63,883 nucleotides of DNA from positions 17,298,118 through 17,362,000 of the forward strand of contig JANJGN010000029.1 of NCBI GenBank assembly GCA_026770705.1. The letters are read 5' to 3'. Numbering within the stretch: position 1 is the first letter of the stretch; each line of letters starts with the position of its first letter. Shown piece by piece: positions 12,363 through 63,565 of this stretch. Both the position numbers and the translations under genes were made by a program. Source of the DNA: Isurus oxyrinchus (lineage: Eukaryota). A model generated the notes under the pieces. It had not been told where the DNA came from. It did no database searches and saw only the letters and a list, made by a program, of their open reading frames with translations.

Positions 12363-12792
12363 TGGAAACGGGGATGGCGGAAAATGAAACGAACCTAAAC
12401 ACAGGGACGGGAGCGAGAGGGGAGGCTGGTCCGCTGCGAGAGAAAGAAACGGGAAAGACGTTTCTCCCCGATGCTGGCTCCTGCCTCAGGTAAAGGAAGG
12501 CGGCTTGACACCTGCGCCGGCCCCGCCCGGGCGCAACTCCCGCACACAGGTCAAAGCCCGGCCCGCCCCGCCCCCCCCCCCCCCCCCCCCCCCCCATTGT
12601 TTTCGGCTCCTGAGGTAAATTTTGGGCTTTCTGCGACTGACTTAAATTAGAACTCCCGACTTTCGGGCGTCTCTTTCCTTTCCCTCCCCCCTCCCCCCCC
12701 CCCCCCCCGGGATAACCTCCTCAAAAGGGGCAAATAAAAAAGTTACCGCCGGCGAATAAAAAGTTGCCTCAGAACGGTTCGCGCGAACTCAC

Positions 12793-12839
12793 CGGTTAAT
12801 TTTCTGAGCGAAAGCGCGGCGCTCCGTTGAAGTGGCCAT
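12793..12839 (-). CDS. DOCK6: Coding exon 1 of a DOCK-C subfamily (DOCK6/7/8) Rac/Cdc42 GEF, most like DOCK6
   Basis: ATG at 12839 gives MATSTERRAFAQKIN-R, then a phase-2 donor CG|GTGAGT. This matches the conserved N-termini MAASERRAFAHKINR (DOCK6), MAERRAFAQKISR (DOCK7) and MATLPSAERRAFALKINR (DOCK8). Family call is strong; paralogue call is weaker. Exon 2 (TVAAEVRKQ-like) was not found in 1-12790. Confidence 0.75.
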
Positions 12840-32539: not shown

Positions 32540-35460
32540 CAAAAACAGAAATACCTGGAAAAACTCAGTAGGTCTGGCAGCATCGGCGGAGAAGAGTACG
32601 GTTGACATTTCTAGGCCTCATGACCCTTCAGCAGAACTAAGTAAAAATAGGAGAGGGGTAAAATATAAGCTGGTTTAAGGGGGGGGGGGATGGTTGTTGG
32701 GACAAGCAAGCAGTGATAGGAAGAGATAACCAAAAGATATCACAGACAAAAGAACAAAGAGGTGTTGAAGGTGGTGATATTATCTAAAAGAATGTGCTAA
32801 TTAAGAGTAGAGAGCAGGACAAGCAAGGTACAGATAGCTCTAGTGGGGGTGGGGTGAAATAAGACTCAAAGGGCAAAAAAGGTATAGATAAAAGATCGGT
32901 GGAATACATTTAAAAATAATGGAAATAGGTGGGAAAAGAAAAATCTATATAAATTATTGGAAAAAATAAAAAGGAAGGGGGAAGAAACAGAAAGGGGGTG
33001 GGGATGGAGGAGGGAGTTTAAGATCTAAAATTGTTGAACTCAATATTCAGTCCGGAAGGATGTAAGGTACCTAGTCGGAAGATGAGGTCCTGTTCCTCCA
33101 GTTTGCGTTGAGCTTCACTGGAACATTGCAGCAAGCCAAGGACAGACATGTGGGCATGAAAGCAGGGTGGAATGTTGAAATGGCAAGTGACAGGGAGGTC
33201 TGGGTCATGCTTGCGGACAGACCGAAGGTGTTCTGCAAAGCGGTCGCCCAGTCTGCGTTTGGTCTCTCCAATGTAGAGGAAACCGCATTGGGAGCAACGA
33301 ATGCAGTAGACTAAGTGGAAGGAAGTGCAAGTGAAATGCTGCTTCACTTGAAAGGAGTGTTTGGGCCCTTGGACGGTGAGGAGAGAGGAAGTGAAGGGGC
33401 AGGTGTTGCATATCTTGCATTCGCATGGGGAGGTGCCGTAGGAGGGAGTGTGGAGTAGGGGGTGATGGAGGAGTGGACCAGGGTGTCCCGGAGGGAACAA
33501 TCCCTACGGAATGCCGCCAGGGGGGGTGAAGGGGTGAAGGTATGTTTGGTGGTGGCATCATGCTGGAGTTGGCAGAAATGTTGGAGGATAATCCCTTGAA
33601 TGTGGAGGCTGGTGGGGTGATAAGTGAGGACAAGGGGGACCCTACCATGTTTCTGGGAAGAAGGAGAAGGCGTGAGGGCGGATGCACGGGAGATGGGCCG
33701 GACATGGTTGAGGGCCCTGTCAACCACTGTGGGTGGAAAACCTCGGTTAAGGAAGAAGGAGGACATGTCAGAGGAACTGTTTTTGAAAGTAGCATCATCA
33801 GAACAGATGCGACGGAGGCGAAGGAACTGAGAGAATGGGTTGGAGTCCTTACAGGAAGCGGGGTGTGAGGAGCTGTGGTCGAGGTAGCTGTGGGAGTCAG
33901 TAGGCTTGTAATGGATATTGGTGGACAGTCTTTCACCAGAAATTGAGACACAGAGATCAAGGAAGGGAAGGGAAGTGTCAGAGATGGACCATGTGAAAAT
34001 GATGGAGGGGTGGAGATTGGAAGCAAGATTAATACATTTTTCCAGGTCCCGACGAGAGCATGAAGCAGCACCAAAGTAATCATGGATGTACTGGAGAAAG
34101 AGTTGTGGGAGGGGGCCAGAGTAGGACTGGAACAAGGAATGTTCCACATACCCCATAAAGAGACAGGCATAGCTGGGGCCCATGCGGGTACCCATAGCCA
34201 CACCTTTTATTTGGAGGAAGTGAGAGGAGTTGAAGGAGAAATTGTTCAGCGTGAGAACAAGTTCAGCCAGACGGAGGAGAGTAGTGGTGGATGGGGATTG
34301 TTCAGGCCTCTGTTCGAGGAAGAAGCAGAGAGCCCTCAGACCATCCTGGTGGGGGATGGAGGTGTAGAGGGATTGGACGTCCATGGTGAAGAGGAGGCGG
34401 TTGGGGCCAGGGAACTGGAAATTGTTGATGTGACGCAAGGTGTCAGAGGAATCATGGATGTAGGTGGGAAGGGACTGAACAAGGGGAGAGAGAAGGGAGT
34501 CAAGATAGCGAGAAATGAGTTCTGTGGGGCAGGAACAGGCTGACACGATCGGTCTACTGGGACAGTCCTGTTTGTGGATTTTGGGTAGGAGGTAGAAGCG
34601 GGCTGTCCGACGTTGGGGGACTATCAGGTTGGAAGCTGGGGAAGGAAGATCTCCAGAGGAGATGAGGTCAGTGACAGTCCTGGAAACAATGGCTTGATGT
34701 TCAGTGGTGGGGTCATGGTCCAGAGAGAGGTAGGAGGAAATGTCTGCGAGTTGACACTCAGCCTCCGCGAGGTAGAGGTCTGTGCGCCAGACAGCAGCAG
34801 CACCACCCTTGTCAGTGGGTTTGATGAGAATGTTAGGGTTGGACCTGAGAGAACAGAGTGTAGTAAGTTCAGAGAGAGACAGGTTAGAATGGGTGAGTGG
34901 AGCAGAGAAATTGAGACGACTAATTTCATGCCAACAGCTCTCAATGAAAAGATCAAGAGAAGGTAAGAATCCAGAGGGAGGGGTCCAGGTGGAGAGAAAA
35001 TATTGGAGGTGGGTAAAAGGATCCGTTGAACAGGGAGAGGACTCCTGCCCAAAGAAGTGAGCACGGAGACGAAGGCGGCGGAAGGAGAGTTCAGCATTGT
35101 GCCGAGCCCGAAATTCATTGGGATGAGGGCATAAGGGTATGAAACTAAATCCTTTGCTGAGCACTGAACATTCAGCGTCGGAGAGAGGAAGGTTAGGGGG
35201 TATAGTGAATACACGGCCGGGGCTGAGATTGGAAGATGGGGTGGGGACGGAGGGACAGGCAGGGGTGGAGGGTCCTGGATGGGTGTTGGTGTCGATGAGT
35301 TGTTAGAGCTTGCGTTCCTTAGCACTTGAGAGAAAGAGAAAAAGTTTCTTGGTGAGGCGTCGGATGAGACGAAGATTAAAATGAAACTGGGGGCACACGC
35401 AGCTTTGAAAAAGGGTACGGCAGTGCTGCTGGAGGGAGAGGTCAAGTGTGTTCATATAGG
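32540..35460 (-). mobile_element. Penelope-like retroelement, left arm of a palindrome (RT + GIY-YIG endonuclease, frameshifted)
   Basis: ORF 33344-35164 has PLE RT motifs (DKGG, FYLLPKIHK, DVQSLYTSI, GVAMGTRMGPSYA); ORF 33018-33500 has GIY-YIG (LVYCIRCSQCGFLYIGETKRRLGDRFAEH). Confidence 0.93.
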
Positions 35461-37846
35461 TCGCACCTTTTTTCAAAGCTGCGCGTGCCCTCAGTTTCAC
35501 CTTATTCTTCGTCTCATCCGACACCTCAACAAGAAACTTTTTCTCTTTCTCTCAAGTGCTAAGGAAGGCAAGCTCCAACAACTCATTGACACCAACACCC
35601 ATCTAGGGCCCTCCACTCTTCCCTGTCCCTCCGTCCCCACCCCATTTTCCAATCCCAGCCCCAGCTGTGTATTCACTATACCCCCTGACCTTCCCCTCTC
35701 TGACGCTGAACATTCAGTGCTCAGCAAAGGACTTAATTTCATACCCTTAAGCCCTCACCTCAATGAATTTCGGGCTCGGCACAATGCTGAACTCTTCTTC
35801 TGGCGTCTTCGTCTCTGTGCTCACTTCTTTGGGCAGGAGTCCTCTCCCCGTTCAATGGATCCTTTTACCCACCTCCAATATTCTCCCTCCACCTGGACCC
35901 CTCCCTCTGGATTCTTACCTTCTCTTAATCTTTTCATTGAGAACTGTTGGTGTGACATTAATCGTCTCAATTTCTCTGCTCCTCTCATCCATTCTAACCT
36001 GTCTCTCTCTGAACTTACTGCACTCCGTTCTCTCAGGTCCAACCCTAACATTCTCATCAAACCTGCTGGCAAGGGTGGTGCTGTTGTTGTCTAACCCTCT
36101 CACATCCTCCAAATAAAAGGTGTGGCTATGGGTACCCACATGGGCCCCAGCTATGCCTGTCTCTTTATGGGGTATGTGGAACATTCCTTGTTCCAGTCCT
36201 ACTCTGGCCCCCTCCCACAACTCTTTCTCCAGTACATCCATGATTACTTTGGTGCTGCTTCATGCTCTCGTCGGGACCTGAAAAAATTTATTAATTTTGC
36301 TTTTAATCTCCACCCCTCCATCATTTTCACTTGGTTCATCTCGATACTTCCCTTCCCTTCCTTGACCTCTCTGTCTCAATATCTGGTGATAGACTGTCCA
36401 CCAATATCCATTACAAGCCTACCGACTCCCACAGCTACCTCAACTACAGCTCCTCACACCCCGCTTCCTGTAAGGACTCCATCCCATTCCCTCAGTTCCT
36501 TTGCCTCCGTCGTATCTGTTCCGATGATGCTACGTTCAATAACAGTTTCTCTGACATGTCCTCCTTCTTCCATAATCGAGGTTTTCCACCCACGGTTGTT
36601 GACAGGGCCCTCAACCGTGTCCGGCCCATCTCCCGTGCATCCGCCCTCACGCCTTCTCCTCCCTCCCAGAAACATGATAGGGTCCCCCTTGTCCTCACTT
36701 ATCACCCCACCAGCCTCCGCATTCAAAGGATCATCCTCCGCCATTTCTGCCAACTCCAGCATGATGCCACCACCAAACACATCTTCCCTTCACCCACCCC
36801 CAGCGGCATTCCGTAGGGATTGTTCCTTCCATGACACCCTGGTCCACTCCTCCATCACTCCTTACTCCTCAACCCCCTCCTACGGCACCTCCCCATGCGA
36901 ATGCAAGATATGCAACACCTTCCCCTTCACTTCCTCTCTCTTCACCGTCCAATGGCCCAAAAACTCCTTTCAAGTGAAGCAGCATTTCACTTGCACTTCC
37001 TTCAACTTAGTCTACTGCATTTGTTGCTCCCAATGCGGTTTCCTCTACATTGGAGAGACCAAACGCAGACTGGGTGACCGCTTTGCAGAACACCTTCGGC
37101 CTGTCCGCAAGCATGACCCAGACCTCCCTGTCGCTTGCCATTTCAACATTCCACCCTGCTCTCATGCCCACATGTCTGTCCTTGGCTTGCTGCATTGTTC
37201 CAGTGAAGCTCAACGCAAACTGGAGGAACAGCACCTCATCTTCCGACTAGGCACCTTACAGCCTTCTGGACTGAACATTGAGTTCAACAATTTTAGATCT
37301 TGAACTCCCTCCTCCATCCCCACCCCCTTTCTGTTTCTTCCCCCTCTTTTTTATTTTTTCCAATAATTTATATAGATTTTTCTTTTCCCACCTATTTCCA
37401 TTATTTTTAAATGTATTCCACCGATCTTTTATCTATACCTTTTTTGCCCTTTTAGTCTTATTTCACCCCACCCCCACTAGAGCTATCTGTACCTTGTGTA
37501 TCCTGCTATCCACTCTTAATTAGCACATTCATTTAGATAATATCACCGCCTTCAACACCTCTTTGTTCTTTTGTCTGTGATATCTTTTGGTTATCTCCTC
37601 CTATCACTGCTTGCTTGTCCCAACAACCACCACCCTCCCCCCTCCCCTTCCCCCTCCCCCCCCCTTCCCCCTTTAAATCAGCTTATATTTCACCCCTTTC
37701 CTATTTTTACTTATTACTGTTGCAGGATCATGAGGACTCGAAAGGTCAACTGTACTCTTCTCCGTCGATGCTGTCAGACCTGCTGAGTTTTTCCGGGTAT
37801 TTCTGCTTTTGTTTTGGATTTCCAGCATCTGCAGTTTTTTGTTTTT
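35461..37846 (+). mobile_element. Penelope-like retroelement, right arm of the palindrome, with an internal ~0.56-kb RT deletion
   Basis: Reverse-complement homologue of the left arm; jumps from GKGGAVVV (~36092) directly to the SH.LQIKGVAMG segment; GIY-YIG ends at 37303. Confidence 0.93.
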
Positions 37847-45595: not shown

Positions 45596-46069
45596 TGTTC
45601 GAGGCTGGGGCACCAGAGCAGATGGAGTTTATCCTGCATCGAACAAGTACTACACATCAACCCTGGTTGATGTTAATGCAGGAAGGAGATTGGGGCAGAC
45701 TGAAATTATTCAATCACTGAGCACGACCATCCCTCCCTTGGATGTGCAAAAAGTAAAAATAGGAACAATAGTAGACCATTGAGCCCCTCGAGCCTGTTCC
45801 ACAATTCATTTCGATCATGGGTGATATTTAACTCCATTTACTCACCTTTGCTTTCTCTGCCTTAACCAATAAAAATATTTCAATCTCGGTCCTGAAAGCA
45901 TCAATTGTCCCCCTACATCCACAGCCTTTTGGGGTGGGGGAAGAGAGTTCCAGATGTTCACCACTCTGTGTCGGAAAAAGCACTTCCCGTTATAATATTA
46001 ATGTAACAAATTACGGAGTTGTCTCAATGCAGCAGGAAGTAATCAGCTGGCTTGCTTCTTCATTTCCAG

Positions 46070-46417
46070 GTTCCACCGTTTTCCTCGCAGCCCCCTCAAA
46101 AGTTCTGCACCTTCCGCGTTCGGGGGTTCCTGGAGGAATATTTGCCCAGCAAGCTGCAAGGCATCAGTTACAGCCCTGCCCTCGCTAGCCGACTCGCAAA
46201 AGAGATGAGCGATGAAATTAAGGAGTTTTCGAAGGGGACTCTGCCGCCCAGATACAAGCTGGTGTGCATTGTGACCCTGGGCGAGAAGAACAATGAGAAT
46301 GTTCTGCTGACCAGCCGTGCTCTCTGGGACTGCTACGCAGACACCTTTGTTTCGCACTGTTATGAGAGCGCTGCCATGTTCGGTGTGGCCAGCATCTTTG
46401 CCTTGTACTGCGAATGA
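46070..46417 (+). CDS. Terminal exon encoding a complete Tctex-1 (dynein light chain, TCTEX1D/DYNLT-type) domain
   Basis: Acceptor TTCTTCATTTCCAG, phase 0. Translation has Tctex1 hallmarks: Y...LAKEMSDEIK, PRYKLVCIVTLGE, SRALWD..D, FGVASIFALYCE-stop. Confidence 0.92.
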   Translation, partial: VPPFSSQPPQKFCTFRVRGFLEEYLPSKLQGISYSPALASRLAKEMSDEIKEFSKGTLPPRYKLVCIVTLGEKNNENVLLTSRALWDCYADTFVSHCYESAAMFGVASIFALYCE

Positions 46418-50012: not shown

Positions 50013-50820
50013 TGGCTGCTAAGAATGTTAAGTAATAATTGTCAGTGGGAGGGAAGGGCTGGTATCATGATCAATGGGAAGGGACTGTCGCTGAAATGAG
50101 GAAGCAGTCCAGTGAAGACAGCATGTCTGTGCCTCAAACCTAGAATAGAAGGAGAATTCATTGACAAGATCTATCTAAAAATTCCAGCTCAGTGAGATGA
50201 TGGCAAAGGGCAGCAAAAGGACAGGAGCCTATTTGGGAACAAACAGCTAAAGAGTCGGATTACAAGTATATTTAATCAGTTCTGACATCGCTGACAAATA
50301 CAGTATGATTTATTGTACAATTGTGGAAGATGCAAATAGATGATTGGAGAAAAAGCTTAATTTCATTTTGCTAATTGTTACTATTTTTCTCTCCTACTTT
50401 CCCTGAACAGGGTCAGGACAGCAACAGGTAGACAGGAGAGCTACTTCTAGCTACCCCTCAGTGCTGATCTGAACTGACAAGCCACCCACACCGTCTCCCT
50501 AATTGGTCCCTGAGGCCACCCAGCACTTAGGGACCGAGATTGGGAACTCAGTGGAAGGAGGGTCGAGAGTCCGTCCAGCCATTGGCAGCTTTGAGTCTTG
50601 CTGCTCCAGTGCGTTGTGGCCAATGGATGAATTCCATCCACTGAGGGTGAATGCACAGCAGTAAGGCACATCTGTGATCATCACGCAAGCTCTGCAGTAA
50701 GGCAGTAGAAAAGATTGTGGTCCCCTTTACCATCCACTGGCTGAACCCTGGCAGAGACCGTCAGGTCAGAGTGTGAGTAGAGTCAGGGAAGTTTCACTAT
50801 TCAATTGATAAGCTGGGCTA

Positions 50821-51470
50821 ATTTCCACACTGAGCAGTCACTATCCACTGAACCATCAGGGGAGCCTGTAGAAATTACCAACTACACTTATACATTCTTA
50901 AGCAGTTAGTGAAATGCTTAACTGATTTATTTACTGTAAATTGCGGCATATAAGTCAACTGGTGTTTAAGACGACACCAACTTTTCTAGCCCTAAAAATC
51001 ATGTTTCTGCAAGCACTTGGTGTATAAGTCGACACCACCAACTCCCCACAACCTTCTCCGCTATGACTATTTACACTCGCATTAATAGTCAGCCTCAATT
51101 TTCAATGTTGAACCTTCCGCTTAATCCTCTGTGGCGATCTGCAAAAGAATTTAAACAGAAGAGAGTTCAGAATGAATGTGACACTTGGCTTTCATCCAAA
51201 AAGATAAAATGAAACAAAAGTCTTGGCTATGACCATCTCTCTGGGTCCCAGTGGACCTTCCTGGACCAATATATCCATCATCTGTCCCAACCCCACATGC
51301 ACCTCCTTCCTGCTTAATCAGGAATTCCACCCTTCCCTTTATAACCTGTATTCACATTCCCTGTATACGATGGGCTCCAAGTATCAATTTCGCTCACTTT
51401 TAGCTTCAAGCACCACTGATCATTTTTCATTCCTGGTTCCACAAACACCACCCCCACCACCTCCTCGTAC

Positions 51471-51501
<31 letters not shown>

Positions 51502-52405
51502 CCGCTTTGTTATTTTGATCTTACAGCTATCTCCTCAGTTAATGCCACCTGGAATGGGTTTTGCCCCTCAGCTGTTCATCATACTCTTAAGATCTGAAAT
51601 CAGATGAACTCCTGACCTTGGGGAATCTTTTCCCTGCCCTCTGTGCCAAGATGATATTCCACCTACTGGGCGGTGAAATTCAACTCGGCAGGGAGGCATT
51701 ATTGTAACTTCTGGCTGTTACCTGCCAGGTCCGATATGTAGATGGATTGTCTTTGATAGAGCTGAACGTCAGGTGCCAATGGGCGGGAGACGCTATCCCG
51801 TCTACTTTGCATTCTCACCCCTGTGGTCTGACTGCTGGTGCTGATTTCAGCTGGAACACACCTGCAGGATAGTGATGTGCTATTCGACTCTCGAGGGCAT
51901 CGCAACTGAGCTGATTCTGCCCAGGCCTGGTGCCAGTGCAGACACCTTCCAGCAGGAGCGACTGGATAGTGGTCAGGAGTGAGAAGAGTGGCTGAATCTT
52001 CCTAATCCTTAACATTATATTGCTGAAGTGAATTGGAGCATGTCTTCCATGTCTGCGTTTGAGGTGAGCTAATATCAGGACATGCCATGACAGAACCTGG
52101 GAGTTCCTAGTCTGCAGGGCTTATTTCCACACTGAGCAGTCACTATCCACTGAGCCATCAAGGGAGCCTGTAGAAGTTGCCATGTACACTTACACGTTCT
52201 TAGGCAGTTAGTGAAATACTTAATCAATTTATTTACTGTAAATTGCGGCATATAAGTCAACTGGTGTTTAAGACAACACCAACTTTTCTAGCCCTAAAAA
52301 TCATGTTTCTGCTAGCACTCGGTGTATAAGTCGACACCACCAACTCCCCACAACCTTCTCAGCTATGACTAGTTATACTCGCGTTAATAGTCAGCCTCAA
52401 TTTTC
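50821..52405 (+). repeat. ~285-bp direct duplication (50821-51102 and 52123-52405)
   Basis: Both copies run ATTTCCACACTGAGCAGTCACTATCCACTGA...GTCAGCCTCAATTTT with scattered substitutions. Confidence 0.88.
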
Positions 52406-54519: not shown

Positions 54520-54594
54520 CTTTTGGATGCTGGGCTCCTCAGTATCAGCTTTTTCCAGAGTCTCATAAACATCAGCATTCGGATGTGAGGACAC
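54520..54594 (-). CDS. IgSF receptor: cytoplasmic exon 2 (VSSHPNADVYETLEKADTEEPSIQK)
   Basis: Acceptor TCTTTCTCCCTTTAAG, donor AAG|GTAACT, 75 nt, phase 0/0; YETL motif. Confidence 0.75.
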
Positions 54595-55217
54595 CTTAAA
54601 GGGAGAAAGACATAATCATTTGGAAACATGGGTCTTGTCATAGTTACACAAGATTGAAGTGTTTCCACTTCTCTCCTTGTCCTGTCCACTTCAAAACTCG
54701 CACCACTTCCTGTTCAGTGGCAGGGAGGCCTATAGGTAATGGGCTTAATCCCATGGTGTTGGAGAGGGTGGTCCCGGTCAAGAACAGACCCAAGACTCAG
54801 CTTCCATCCAAAACCTGGAAGGAAACGTGTACCATGTCAATGACCTCAGGGTCACGGGGGTGGAAGGTCATCCCTAATAGCAACAACGGAAACACTCACT
54901 GTTACTGGGAGCAGGACCAGACTCGGCCCCCACCTCAATCCACTGGGTTAACTGCACCAGGGATGTACAGATCAAAAATATTCACAGACTCTGTTCCCAG
55001 TCTGTACCTCCTCAGCTGATCATAGTCCTAATGGCAGTAGGAGACTCGAGAATTCTGGGTTAAGTTGGGGAAAAACAAAACTAGAGAAAAAAAATCAGCA
55101 CTGAATCACAATCAAGTGACTCTTTTCCAGACACTGTGCAGACATTGACTGATTCCAATTTCACATTCGACTGTGATGACCACCAGCACCCCCTCCGCAC
55201 CCCCCCTCCTCCAACCA

Positions 55218-56426
55218 CAACTTGCATTTATATAGCACCTTTAACTTGGTGAAACATCCTAAGGTGTGTCACAGAAACGTTAACAAACTAAATTTGACCA
55301 TGAACCACGTAAGTAGATATTAGAGGTGGTTAAAAGCTTAGTTAAAGAGATGGATTTAAAAGAGGACCTTAGAGGAGGAGAGAGGTTTAGAGAGAAAATC
55401 CCAGAACTTGGGGCCCAGGCAGCTAAAGACATGGCCACCACTGGTGAAGCAGTTAAAACTGAGGATACAAAAGAGGGGGAACACAGAGTTCTTAGAGGGT
55501 TGTGGGGCTGCAGGAGCTTACAGAGATAGAGAGGGGATTAAGGCTGTGGAGGAGTTTGAAAACAAGAATGAGAATTTTAAAATTAGAGTATTGCCAGACT
55601 AAGGCCAAGCAACCTGTTAACACTCACTGTCTTGGTTATCACATGAAACATAGCCACTTGGTTAATGTACCAGGGTGACCAGGCAACTGCGCCTCAGCAA
55701 CAGTCGATGGGTTTGGGAGGGACAGGGAGAAAACAGAGAGTAAAACCCAGTAAAGCCACATCTACACCAGCTGTGTGTGACCACAGTAGAACCAAAGCAA
55801 CAACAGCTTATAATTGTAATGCACCTTTAGAGTAATGAAATGACCCAAGGCACTTCAATTGAGTGTTAAAGAATAAAGTTGGACACTGAGATTCATAGGG
55901 AGATATTTTGCCAGGTGACCAAATTTTGGTCAAAGAAGTAGATTTTTAAGTTATGGCTTAAAGGAGGAAAGTAATGTAGAGAGGCAGAGAGGTGGAGGGA
56001 GGGAAACCCAGAGCCTTGGGCTGAGGCAACTGAAGACATGGCCACCAATGGCAGAGCAATTACAACTGGGAATACACAAGAGGCCGGAATTAGAGAAGGC
56101 AGATATCTCGGAGGTTATGGGGCTGGAGGAGAGTACAGAGCTAGGGAGACACAAAACTATGGGGGATTTGAAAACAAAAATGAGAATTTTAAAATCAAGA
56201 CATTGGTTGGCCGGGAGTCAGCGAGCACAGGGGTGATAAGGGAACAGGACTTGCAGCAATTTAAGACACGGGCAGTAGAGTTTTGGATGACCTCAAGTGT
56301 AAATGGAGGCTAGAATATGGGAGACTAGCCAAGGGTATGTTGGAATAAAAACAAAGGCATGGATGACATTTTTCAGCAGCAAATGAGCTAAGACAGGGGT
56401 GAAATCAGGCGATGGTATAGAGGCGG
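55218..56426 (-). mobile_element. Two old L2 3' fragments
   Basis: L2 tail CTTGCATTTATATAGCACCTTTA and shared 3' UTR. Confidence 0.65.
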
Positions 56427-57459
56427 TGTGATGAGAGATATATTTTTTAAATATGTGTGTGTGTGTGTATAATTCATTAAACGGAGGGTGGGAAGTTACT
56501 ACAGACAGCTTGTCTGTGAAGGCTAAGAGTTGAAAGGTTAAAGGTGTTAGGTTGATGCATTTGTAATGAGAGGTTATGGTGAGATTGAGTTACAAGTAGA
56601 TAGGGTGGATTTAAAATTTGCACTGAGAGATAAGTGGAGAAACTTGGTTTCTCAGCTGTTGAATTTCAGAAGGGTTTTCAGAGGTGGCAAGGAACACTTG
56701 CATCTTACAAAGGCTTCCTGAGTATACAGGGGATGGTATATTACATTTTATTGACAGGAAAGTAGAGACAAAATAGAAAACGTGAAAGATTTTTAAATGT
56801 GGAGAAGTTGAGTTCAAAGAGGTATTTGAGGACAATGGAGCCTGAGATGAAAGAGAAAAAAGATATTTAAGGAAGGATGCTTAATTGAGCCATGCGATGG
56901 CTATGGGAGAAACACGCTGAAGACCAGCTCCTTGGTGTGTGAGCCATTGAAAAAGCTGTGAAAGTTTTAAATTGGAGGCAGCAACTCTGTGTTAAGCCAG
57001 GAAAGTCTGTGTTTTTGGAAACAGTTTGTTTCTGAACCTCTTTTGGAATTCCACATCAGAGCAGAAGTGTTTGAGACGTTGTGAGGCATACTTTTAATAA
57101 TGTGACAACAATTCCTTGATTTGGGTAATATTACTGGATTTTTATGGTTAAAATCTACAAGAGGATTGTTGCCAAGAAGGTAGTTTAATTGTGCACTTTT
57201 GATCAAGCGGGTTTTTTTATGGGTTGTTCTGTATGACTGTTTAACTATGGAAGGTTAATCTTGTGTGTTTAAGTCTTTTTTCTTTTTAATTAAATCTTTT
57301 AATTTTTAAAATTTTAAAGGTGTTATTGGAGTTCTATGCTTTTGAGGTCAGTAGCTTTTCCTCCTCGTTTTCACAATAAAAAGAGGTTTATGATCAGTGA
57401 GACAGACTTCACTCTGGCATCTGGCTTGCTCAACAATAACCTCAGCTGTGATCATAACA
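56427..57459. mobile_element. Solo LTR inserted in L2
   Basis: TGTGATGA...TCATAACA termini; flanks GCGG/GTGG; L2 sequence resumes afterwards. Confidence 0.6.
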
Positions 57460-57751
57460 GTGGATATGGGTGGTCTTACAGATGGCATGACTAAGAGGTT
57501 GGAAGTTCACCTTGGGGTCGAATGTGACACCAAGGTTGCAAACAGACTGGCTTCATCTCAGAATATTGCCAGCAAAAGGATGGAGTCTGAAAAGCAAGGA
57601 GAATGGATTCAGTGCATAGGTCTTTACTGTGTTGGTCCCAGGTTTGTAGCACAGGGACTCAAAGGGGCTATTGACAGAAAGTCTTTGATTGGAACCAATG
57701 TCTAGAAATCCCAGGTGAGTATTGTGTTCCTTTGTTCACATTCATACTCAC

Positions 57752-57805
57752 CATGTACAGCGGATCTTCAACCTGTTGCCCTGTAGCTCTATGCTTTCTT
57801 ATGAG
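57752..57805 (-). CDS. IgSF receptor: cytoplasmic exon 1 (LIRKHRATGQQVEDPLYM)
   Basis: Acceptor CCCTCTTTTTCAG, donor ATG|GTGAGT, 54 nt, phase 0/0; basic stop-transfer RKHR. Confidence 0.82.
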
Positions 57806-58159: not shown

Positions 58160-58251
58160 AGCGTACACAACAACTGACGTCACAATGATCAGGAGAAGCA
58201 CTACACTGGTGCTGATCCCAGAGACCAGCCACTCTTGTTTTTCAGCCACAT
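58160..58251 (-). CDS. IgSF receptor: transmembrane exon (DVAEKQEWLVSGISTSVVLLLIIVTSVVVYA)
   Basis: Acceptor TTTGTGTTGCAG (phase 1), donor GCT|GTAAGT (phase 0); uncharged hydrophobic helix. Confidence 0.85.
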
Positions 58252-60152: not shown

Positions 60153-60431
60153 CACTTGTCATGCTGTCAGTCACATTGACCACCACCACTGACGTTCTTG
60201 TTCCCAACGTATTCTCTGCAGAGCAGGTGTAGTTCCCCTGGTCACTGAGTGAGATGTTCTCCACTTTGATCTTCAGTTGATTTGTTTGCTTGGTCTGCAA
60301 AACTGTTCCATTGAAGCTCCAAGACATTCGGGCTATCGGGTTGCTATCGGATATACAAAGAAGTTCGAGCAGGTCACCTTTCCTCTTCAGAACATCTTTC
60401 CCTGGTTGCACCTTGAGACTTACAGGTCCAT
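60153..60431 (-). CDS. IgSF receptor: C2/I-set domain exon
   Basis: Acceptor CTTTTCTAACAG; splicing creates a YGP linker; LELLCISDSNPIARMSW...DQGNYTCSAEN; donor G|GTTTGT at phase 1 (donor position less certain). Confidence 0.85.
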
Positions 60432-61289: not shown

Positions 61290-61589
61290 ATGAAACTTGG
61301 AGCTTCAGCACCTTCAGTATCTTCTTAAATTCATGAGTGATCTGGCAAGTAATTGTTTTACCGTCGTCTTTTGCTTGTGGTACAAATGCAATTGTAGACA
61401 TAGCATTGAAGGTTCCATCACATTGAGCATTGACAGATAACAGAGTGTTTCCTTCTAGTTGACTCTTGTCCATCAGCCAATCCACCTGAATGTCTCTTGG
61501 ATAAAACCCAATCATATTCATTTGCAGCATCATGGGCTTGTTCACTTCCATTGGGGACATTTGGAAAAAAGTCTCAGAAATTGGTACAG
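61290..61589 (-). CDS. IgSF receptor: C1-set-like domain exon
   Basis: Acceptor TTTTGTTCTTTAAG, donor T|GTAAGT, 300 nt, phase 1/1. Motifs GFYPRDIQVDW, DGTF, DDGKTITCQITH. Confidence 0.88.
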
Positions 61590-63154: not shown

Positions 63155-63565
63155 CTTTGATAATCACCTGTGTCACCTCAGGCACCCCTTTAACTTCAGC
63201 TTTTATCTTGTTAACTGGGTCACAGAAATAGAATCCAGCATCTGACACAAGTAATTCTTTGATGCGGAGTTGGGCAGTGTGAAGGGAAGTAATCAAGCTC
63301 TCGTAACGTGAAGGGAGATGACATTGCTTTATGAAATCAAGAGTATTCACAATGACATGGGCATTTTTACGGTCTTCAGGATGTTTATAATGCAGCCATT
63401 TCACAAACTGTCGCTCAGCTACCATTCTTTTGGAGAAATTTGTGATCACTTTGGGTTCCAAAGTCGGCCTTTGGATGGAGTCTGCAAACTTGCAAGTGAT
63501 TATCAAATCTTCCTTTATTACACCATAGGCTTTCTTTATAAGTTGTGCATTGCTGCTACTTTTCC
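63155..63565 (-). CDS. IgSF receptor: V-set domain exon
   Basis: Acceptor TTGTTTTCCAG, donor G|GTGAGT, 411 nt, phase 1/1. Motifs LIITC...VKW...LRIKELLVSDAGFYFC. Leader exon is probably beyond the window end. Confidence 0.88.

Follow-up and report, generated by a model that had tools for sequence, protein, structure and literature searches.

Immunoreceptor tyrosine-based activation motifs (ITAMs) are ordinarily split over two exons within the first tyrosine module, a layout described together with the ITAM consensus in passages of PMC4536121. The available sections of PMC2832619, PMC2110893 and PMC5112662 call a phase-0 split characteristic of ITAMs and of the ITAM-like tails of CEACAM receptors, and conserved GRB2-type YxN motifs are noted in the latter (PMC5112662, in part). 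Altered versions also exist, such as the pseudo-ITAM of CD5, which helps to damp T-cell receptor (TCR) signals (PMC3583937, in excerpt). Here we describe a receptor gene on the minus strand of a 63,883-nt stretch of the shark Isurus oxyrinchus (the window, on contig C29 of a 4.98-Gb genome), whose cytoplasmic tail keeps the split geometry of an ITAM and lacks the leucine or isoleucine of its first module. We propose, with a probability of about 0.5, that this tail, which belongs to a shark V–C1–C2 receptor of the immunoglobulin superfamily encoded by a spliced, single-copy gene, combines a conserved pseudo-ITAM with a YxN motif and likely acts as a three-tyrosine scaffold for proteins with a single SH2 domain, rather than as a trigger for Syk or ZAP70.

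A tyrosine pair joined by splicing

The pair is assembled from two small exons. Cytoplasmic exon 1 (57805–57752, 54 nt) carries acidic residues and an invariant proline upstream of the first tyrosine (Tyr1, codon 57757–57755), which is its penultimate codon. A phase-0 GT..AG intron of 3157 nt (57751–54595) follows directly after Tyr1+1, and cytoplasmic exon 2 (54594–54520, 75 nt) supplies a serine at Tyr1+3 and the second tyrosine (Tyr2, codon 54567–54565) within a YxxL. Read across the joint, the motif has Asp at Tyr1−3, Ser at Tyr1+3, a seven-residue spacer and then YETL, which sets the two tyrosines 11 residues apart. A third tyrosine (Tyr3, codon 53978–53976) stands in a YxN on cytoplasmic exon 3 (53993–53922), beyond the interval marked by the initial annotation of this locus. 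All three short cytoplasmic exons are phase 0 and each contributes one tyrosine.

The joint, which the initial annotation had derived from the genomic letters, is now supported by assembled contigs: in 7/8 runs (X1, X15, X8, X10, X16, X12 and X13) they pass straight from 57752 to 54594, skipping 3157 nt between canonical AG/GT exon ends. The seven positive runs represent five samples from four studies under two species labels; X14 gave no cover, and these eight are among 19 listed runs. The RNA nature of the runs is the tool's guess, with no run recorded as RNA and contigs that give neither tissue nor level, but because the contigs skip GT..AG introns, spliced transcripts are implied. The spliced frame is open and agrees exon for exon with NCBI orthologue models. 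An additional exon between 57752 and 54594, which would have refuted the reading of the initial annotation, is excluded by the direct joins together with a crude splice-site scan that detected no in-frame phase-0/phase-0 exon inside the intron. Separately, two database isoforms, Mustelus X2 (P0009) and Pristiophorus X2 (P0026), end differently just after Tyr1 or skip the C1 exon, possibly by alternative splicing; no such joints occur among those listed for the runs of the window.

A non-canonical first module maintained across sharks

We aligned the window gene with eight shark orthologues (n = 9 in total), one isoform per species: Carcharodon carcharias, Cetorhinus maximus, Scyliorhinus canicula, S. 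torazame, Mustelus asterias (isoform X1; X2, which is without cytoplasmic exon 2, was set aside), Heterodontus francisci, Heptranchias perlo and Pristiophorus japonicus. These species cover both shark superorders. The nearest named proteins to the V exon are those of Carcharodon carcharias (91% identity) and Cetorhinus maximus (84%).

Tyr1, Tyr2, the leucine at Tyr2+3 and the YxN motif are kept in 9/9 sequences, so that the initial annotation's tyrosines and its YxN after the pair both stand. Two further ITAM features are equally constant: Tyr1−3 is D, E or N in all nine, and a seven-residue spacer always precedes the second YxxL. The first module is not a YxxL/I in any of them. Asked for L/I at Tyr1+3, the alignment returns 0/9, with S in five, P in three and C in one, and a single substitution cannot turn the window's Ser codon, TCC, into a codon for Leu or Ile; a recent Leu-to-Ser decay, as the earlier wording of a replaced leucine implied, is thereby rejected. 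Pro at Tyr1−2, Ser at +4, Pro at +6, Asp at +9 and Val at +10 are invariant in 9/9, and Tyr1+2 is Val in 8/9. No indel interrupts the Tyr1–Tyr2 spacing in any of the nine, whereas some species carry one inserted residue in the linker that follows Tyr2.

Among the eight database proteins, 8/19 columns of the motif block are invariant and its mean pairwise identity is 0.74, compared with 14/120 columns and 0.49 for the V domain, 28/93 and 0.59 for C2, and identities of 0.53 for C1, 0.59 for the transmembrane (TM) segment and 0.53 for the linker after the motif. The motif is thus the best-conserved part of the receptor protein. Because of this conservation across the shark orthologues, the degenerate first module is old and under selection, and the tail is a maintained pseudo-ITAM rather than a case of recent decay.

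Searches beyond sharks yielded no orthologue at E ≤ 1e-15 (6 matches of 6072 candidates) or at E ≤ 1e-25 (7 of 7996). Among the best 150 matches of a representative search, the four at ≥46% identity are all shark, and the others are multi-immunoglobulin (Ig) proteins at ≤37%, three of them checked by name. As such searches are insensitive for fast-evolving receptors, absence outside sharks is not demonstrated.

The single predicted model of Pristiophorus japonicus (P0165/P0026) stands apart in two respects. Its cytoplasmic exon 2 is apparently duplicated, with a second copy that fits the ITIM (immunoreceptor tyrosine-based inhibitory motif) consensus (Val at −2), and in its V domain the canonical Cys pair is gone and another pair is present.

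Relation to true ITAMs

The Pfam TCR_zetazeta profile marks three loci in the genome, which we take to be one CD247-type and two near-identical FcR-gamma-type genes. Pattern scans of the DNA predict three ITAMs, two in zeta and one in FcR-gamma, and each has a phase-0 split after Tyr+1, a tyrosine spacing of 11 and L/I at +3 (3/3); pairing failed for a third zeta ITAM, which is not counted. The receptor matches all three predicted ITAMs in intron position and in spacing. The ITAM-like geometry and the parallel to the FcR-gamma gene drawn by the initial annotation are therefore upheld against this genome's own predicted exons, in line with the rule in passages of PMC4536121. Since this split is standard for ITAMs, it hints at origin and is no novelty in itself. 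The FcR-gamma-type TM exon is also 92 nt long and phase 1-0, as in the receptor, without sequence likeness. The two FcR-gamma-type loci, L029 (C1723) and L031 (C1648), lie on small contigs and may be haplotypes or a duplicate.

Could the ITAM look be convergent, with small symmetric phase-0 exons that each brought an independent tyrosine motif (a kinase site, a YxxL sorting or docking signal, a YxN) and no ITAM ancestor? Favouring this, every one of the three tail introns is phase 0, one tyrosine falls on each of the first three tail exons, and the Pristiophorus model indicates that such exons can duplicate; L/I at +3 is found in 0/9, and no similarity extends beyond the key positions. Pfam ITAM is absent among the 12 families of P0001 and among the 25 of 27 families shown for the eight aligned proteins. 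Set against it are the joint agreement with real ITAMs of the junction after Tyr+1, the spacing of 11 and D/E/N at −3, and the indel-free spacing in 9/9 beside a linker that tolerates insertion. For scale, we shuffled the 72-residue tail 400,000 times while keeping its junctions fixed: a Y-x(9–11)-YxxL/I pair arose in 2.6%, a pair with the junction after Tyr+1 in 0.085% (3.3% of those with a pair), and a pair with junction and upstream acid in 0.045%. These figures give a scale and not a p-value, because the pattern was chosen after being seen. On balance, we hold convergence to be possible but doubtful.

If the tail does descend from an ITAM, a two-exon ITAM cassette has been kept under strong selection despite losing a residue thought essential for Syk/ZAP70 binding, and the oldest jawed vertebrates to have adaptive immunity would provide a natural case in which the repurposing of a signalling motif can be tested. 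The earlier claim of an ITAM-derived tail is, however, unproven: none of the homologues we recovered has an intact ITAM, and beyond the key positions the likeness was not significant in a test that failed equally between two real ITAMs. We regard ITAM ancestry as plausible.

Signalling by Syk or ZAP70

A second alternative makes the protein an attenuated activating receptor: the pair would function as an ITAM of low affinity and still bind Syk or ZAP70 through their tandem SH2 domains. The exact ITAM spacing and the strong conservation of the whole 19-residue block are consistent with this, Val at +2 in 8/9 might partly replace the +3 residue, and the TM helix (exon 58251–58160), which contains no charged residue as the initial annotation had stated, fits self-contained signalling. 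However, with Pro in three, Cys in one and Ser in five of nine sequences, no large hydrophobic residue is maintained at +3, all three predicted ITAMs of the genome's signalling chains keep L/I there, and the published consensus, as given in parts of PMC4536121 and PMC2832619, is failed. We therefore judge this unlikely.

The initial annotation also raised a hemITAM, in which the single YxxL of each of two clustered receptors would bridge one Syk. In its favour stand a single intact YxxL, invariant and preceded by Asp at −2 in 9/9, and the divergence of NKp65 and NKR-P1A from the triacidic consensus, which indicates that the rule is not absolute (PMC3576117, in part). Yet in CLEC-2, Dectin-1 and CLEC9A the YxxL is preceded by acids at −2, −3 and −4, and an FcR-gamma ITAM with one tyrosine mutated signals only after DED is added (same source, in part). 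In the receptor only −2 is a conserved acid; −4 is never acidic and −3 is A, V or T. Moreover, the hemITAM receptors named in the consulted part of PMC3576117 are C-type lectins. The hemITAM proposal thus finds little footing in the alignment, and we consider it very improbable. An inhibitory reading was rejected as well: the ITIM consensus (I/L/V/S)xYxx(L/V), taken from a section of PMC2832619, does not accommodate Asp at Tyr2−2, present in 9/9, and is fitted only by the duplicate exon copy of Pristiophorus.

A proposed three-tyrosine scaffold

In place of Syk or ZAP70 activation, we infer the following course for the three-tyrosine scaffold. Ligand binding by the V domain would cluster the receptor, and Src-family kinases would phosphorylate Tyr1, which has conserved acids upstream, and then Tyr2 and Tyr3. 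Phosphorylated Tyr3, a candidate Grb2-SH2 or immunoglobulin tail tyrosine (ITT)-like YxN site, would recruit Grb2-family adaptors; phosphorylated Tyr2, in its YxxL, may bind one SH2 domain or work as an endocytic or sorting signal; and phosphorylated Tyr1, with a small residue or Pro at +3, would find a partner other than the Syk pocket, one needing no large hydrophobic +3 residue. By analogy with CD5 or DNAM-1, the output would be co-stimulation or tuning, with no charged adaptor chain involved. The proposed docking follows known SH2 preferences. A true ITAM, altered before the two shark superorders separated, is probably the ancestor of the two-exon module.

Several points weigh against this scheme. 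The need for L/I at +3 in tandem-SH2 binding is general background, and a literature search for mutational tests of the ITAM +3 residue returned nothing useful. The immune role of the receptor is assumed. As the introns of the tail are phase 0 without exception, their phase says little and position alone counts. Masked, anchored similarity to real ITAMs gave p values of 0.25–0.42, in a comparison that has no power because the control between two real ITAMs gave 0.445; a 7-residue local match between exon 1 and the FcR-gamma-type exon (p 0.029, uncorrected) is not counted as support. With no intact-ITAM homologue among the orthologue searches and none outside sharks at E ≤ 1e-15 or 1e-25, ITAM ancestry is untraceable. 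Finally, the invariant spacer (Ser +4, Pro +6, Asp +9, Val +10) together with Val at +2 could mean that some other partner reads both tyrosines together as a unit.

This last point can be carried further. A germline V–C1 receptor on a chromosome that is likely paralogous to the major histocompatibility complex (MHC) might have had its own ITAM re-tuned before the shark radiation, with the two tyrosines now read jointly by a partner other than Syk or ZAP70. Its motif would then define a new two-tyrosine class, and the receptor would be a survivor in which a single chain still unites ligand-binding V–C1 exons with ITAM exons; we consider this improbable.

Receptor architecture and genomic neighbourhood

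Upstream of the tail, on the same strand, the gene encodes three Ig domains and a membrane helix. The leader exon lies ~3.4 kb past the window end (match at 4431 in L002). The V-set exon (63155–63565, phase 1-1) is covered by contig pieces and matches its profile at E 1.4e-5, with 25.6 bits against a cut-off of 26. The C1-set exon (61290–61589; E 8.7e-12) is without the B-strand Cys, and a C2/I-type exon follows (60153–60431; Ig_3, E 1.3e-11). The TM exon (58160–58251, 92 nt, phase 1-0) is fixed by contig joints 58251/60153 and 57805/58160. At the other end, the last exon (50292–51138) holds five codons, the stop and the 3′ untranslated region (UTR); run X16 provides the joint 51138/53922, and the C-terminus matches P0001. 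Its 3′ end is not fixed, with contig pieces extending to 50292. An AlphaFold model of the Carcharodon protein (8-sequence alignment; mean predicted local distance difference test score, pLDDT, 65.6) shows three Ig domains, a single membrane helix and a low-confidence tail.

The gene is single-copy in this genome. Searches with the V exon and with cytoplasmic exon 2 each return one match, counts that are lower bounds, and 10 additional matches to the C1 exon are weak throughout, none better than E 9e-5; with these three probes and the same lower bounds, no paralogue of the kind expected in a paired-receptor family was found. ESM Atlas matches to the ectodomain are generic V/C Ig clusters, and those to the tail, scoring ≤0.83, are leads only.

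Three further observations concern the exons themselves. Lamniform and carcharhiniform orthologues (5/5, plus the window) have two additional Cys, one mid-V and one in C1, which possibly form a new inter-domain or inter-chain disulfide; at the same positions they occur in 0/3 of Heterodontus, Heptranchias and Pristiophorus. The C1 B-strand Cys is retained in Heptranchias only within the shark orthologue alignment. A 292-nt direct duplicate in the last intron (52114–52405) copies the start of the 3′ UTR (50812–51103) at 92% identity, and because of this duplication some contig pieces are misplaced.

On the minus strand, a DOCK-C/D gene has its first exon at ~12821 (about 12790–12830) with its Pfam N-terminal domain located 35 kb to the left of the window (C29:17263071); a KANK gene lies ~0.2 Mb farther left in the same orientation (C29:17069907), downstream of DOCK. 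We presume that this pair corresponds to DOCK6/KANK2 of human 19p13.2, an MHC-paralogous region. The same contig has a DUF4149/TMEM205-type match at 27.68 Mb. Within the window, an intronless-looking open reading frame (ORF) of the Tctex-1 family (dynein light chain; 46043–46417, plus strand, E 6e-20) stands tail-to-tail with the receptor gene, and 33018–37303 contains two sets of degraded retroelement ORFs, oppositely oriented and judged by eye to be reverse-transcriptase-like.

Comparison with known systems

A targeted literature search on the receptor found no paper, and the orthologues have only automatic NCBI names, 'cell adhesion molecule-like' or 'Siglec-like'; the receptor has apparently not been described so far. 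Its split intron position is textbook knowledge, and both pseudo-ITAMs and tails that combine an ITAM-like motif with YxN have precedents. What appears to be new is a single-copy, shark-wide V–C1–C2 receptor that holds a pseudo-ITAM under strong selection. The tail resembles those of the ITAM chains (FcR-gamma, CD247/zeta, CD3, CD79 and DAP12) in its split first module, D/E/N-xx-Y, seven-residue spacer and second YxxL, as judged from passages of PMC4536121 and the genome's own zeta and FcR-gamma chains. Unlike those chains, the receptor has no L/I at Tyr1+3 and no acidic TM residue, and it adds three extracellular Ig domains and a YxN.

In its ectodomain, the V–C–C architecture is like that of MAG/CD22, nectin/Necl (CADM), RAGE and SIRP-alpha, and the top Foldseek matches of the model are MAG, CD22, Necl-4, nectin-1, RAGE and SIRP-alpha. 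Because these best structural matches reach only 14–20% identity, no known family claims the receptor. Siglec V domains typically have an F-strand Arg and are not known to form a B–F disulfide; here the F strand has the canonical Cys and no Siglec-type Arg, which rejects membership with Siglecs, CD22 and MAG. CADM/Necl proteins end in a PDZ-binding motif and are highly identical among vertebrates. The receptor has no PDZ motif, its C-termini vary among orthologues and its identity to Necl-4 is 16%, so it is not placed there either. J-type G strands carry the motif FGxG, which is absent from 8/8 aligned V domains. With one C1 domain only and 14% identity to UrIg2, the receptor also falls outside UrIg, the non-rearranging VJ–C1 antigen-receptor-like genes that have a VJ domain with a J-type G strand and several C1 domains (PMC12227049, in part).

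Activating CEACAMs differ from the receptor, which has a C1-set domain, a canonical V Cys pair in 7/8 orthologues and a single copy with no inhibitory paralogue found. CEACAM N domains typically lack the B–F disulfide, and CEACAMs are not known to contain a C1-set domain. CEACAM membership is accordingly rejected on the C1-set match, the V Cys pair and the DOCK-C/D and KANK neighbours. The tails are closer: CEACAM3-like proteins, CEACAM19/20 and the Xenopus ITAM-like Ceacams are likewise Ig receptors with a built-in ITAM-like motif, a phase-0 split and four cytoplasmic exons (sections of PMC2832619, PMC2110893 and PMC5112662). The Xenopus proteins share YxN sites with the receptor, and their genes lie between lipe and bcl3 rather than beside a DOCK/KANK pair (PMC5112662, in part). 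The receptor's first module falls outside even the YxxL/M/V/I/F definition of CEACAM ITAM-like motifs.

DNAM-1/CD226 resembles the receptor in its Y-x-N motif and uncharged TM, with no homology shown. It is an Ig receptor whose ITT-like motif, acidic-x-hydrophobic-Y-x-N, reportedly binds Grb2; it has two V domains and is not known to carry an ITAM-like pair. CD5, like the shark receptor, has a third, downstream tyrosine. It differs from the receptor in being a scavenger-receptor cysteine-rich protein with an 8-residue spacer and no homology, so that the parallel is a functional analogy only. Its pseudo-ITAM, YSQP-x8-YPAL, likewise has no L/I at +3 (Pro, as in 3/9 of the sharks), and shares the acidic kinase-site context and the second YxxL (PMC3583937, in excerpt). 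CD5 is the closest functional precedent for the shark tail.

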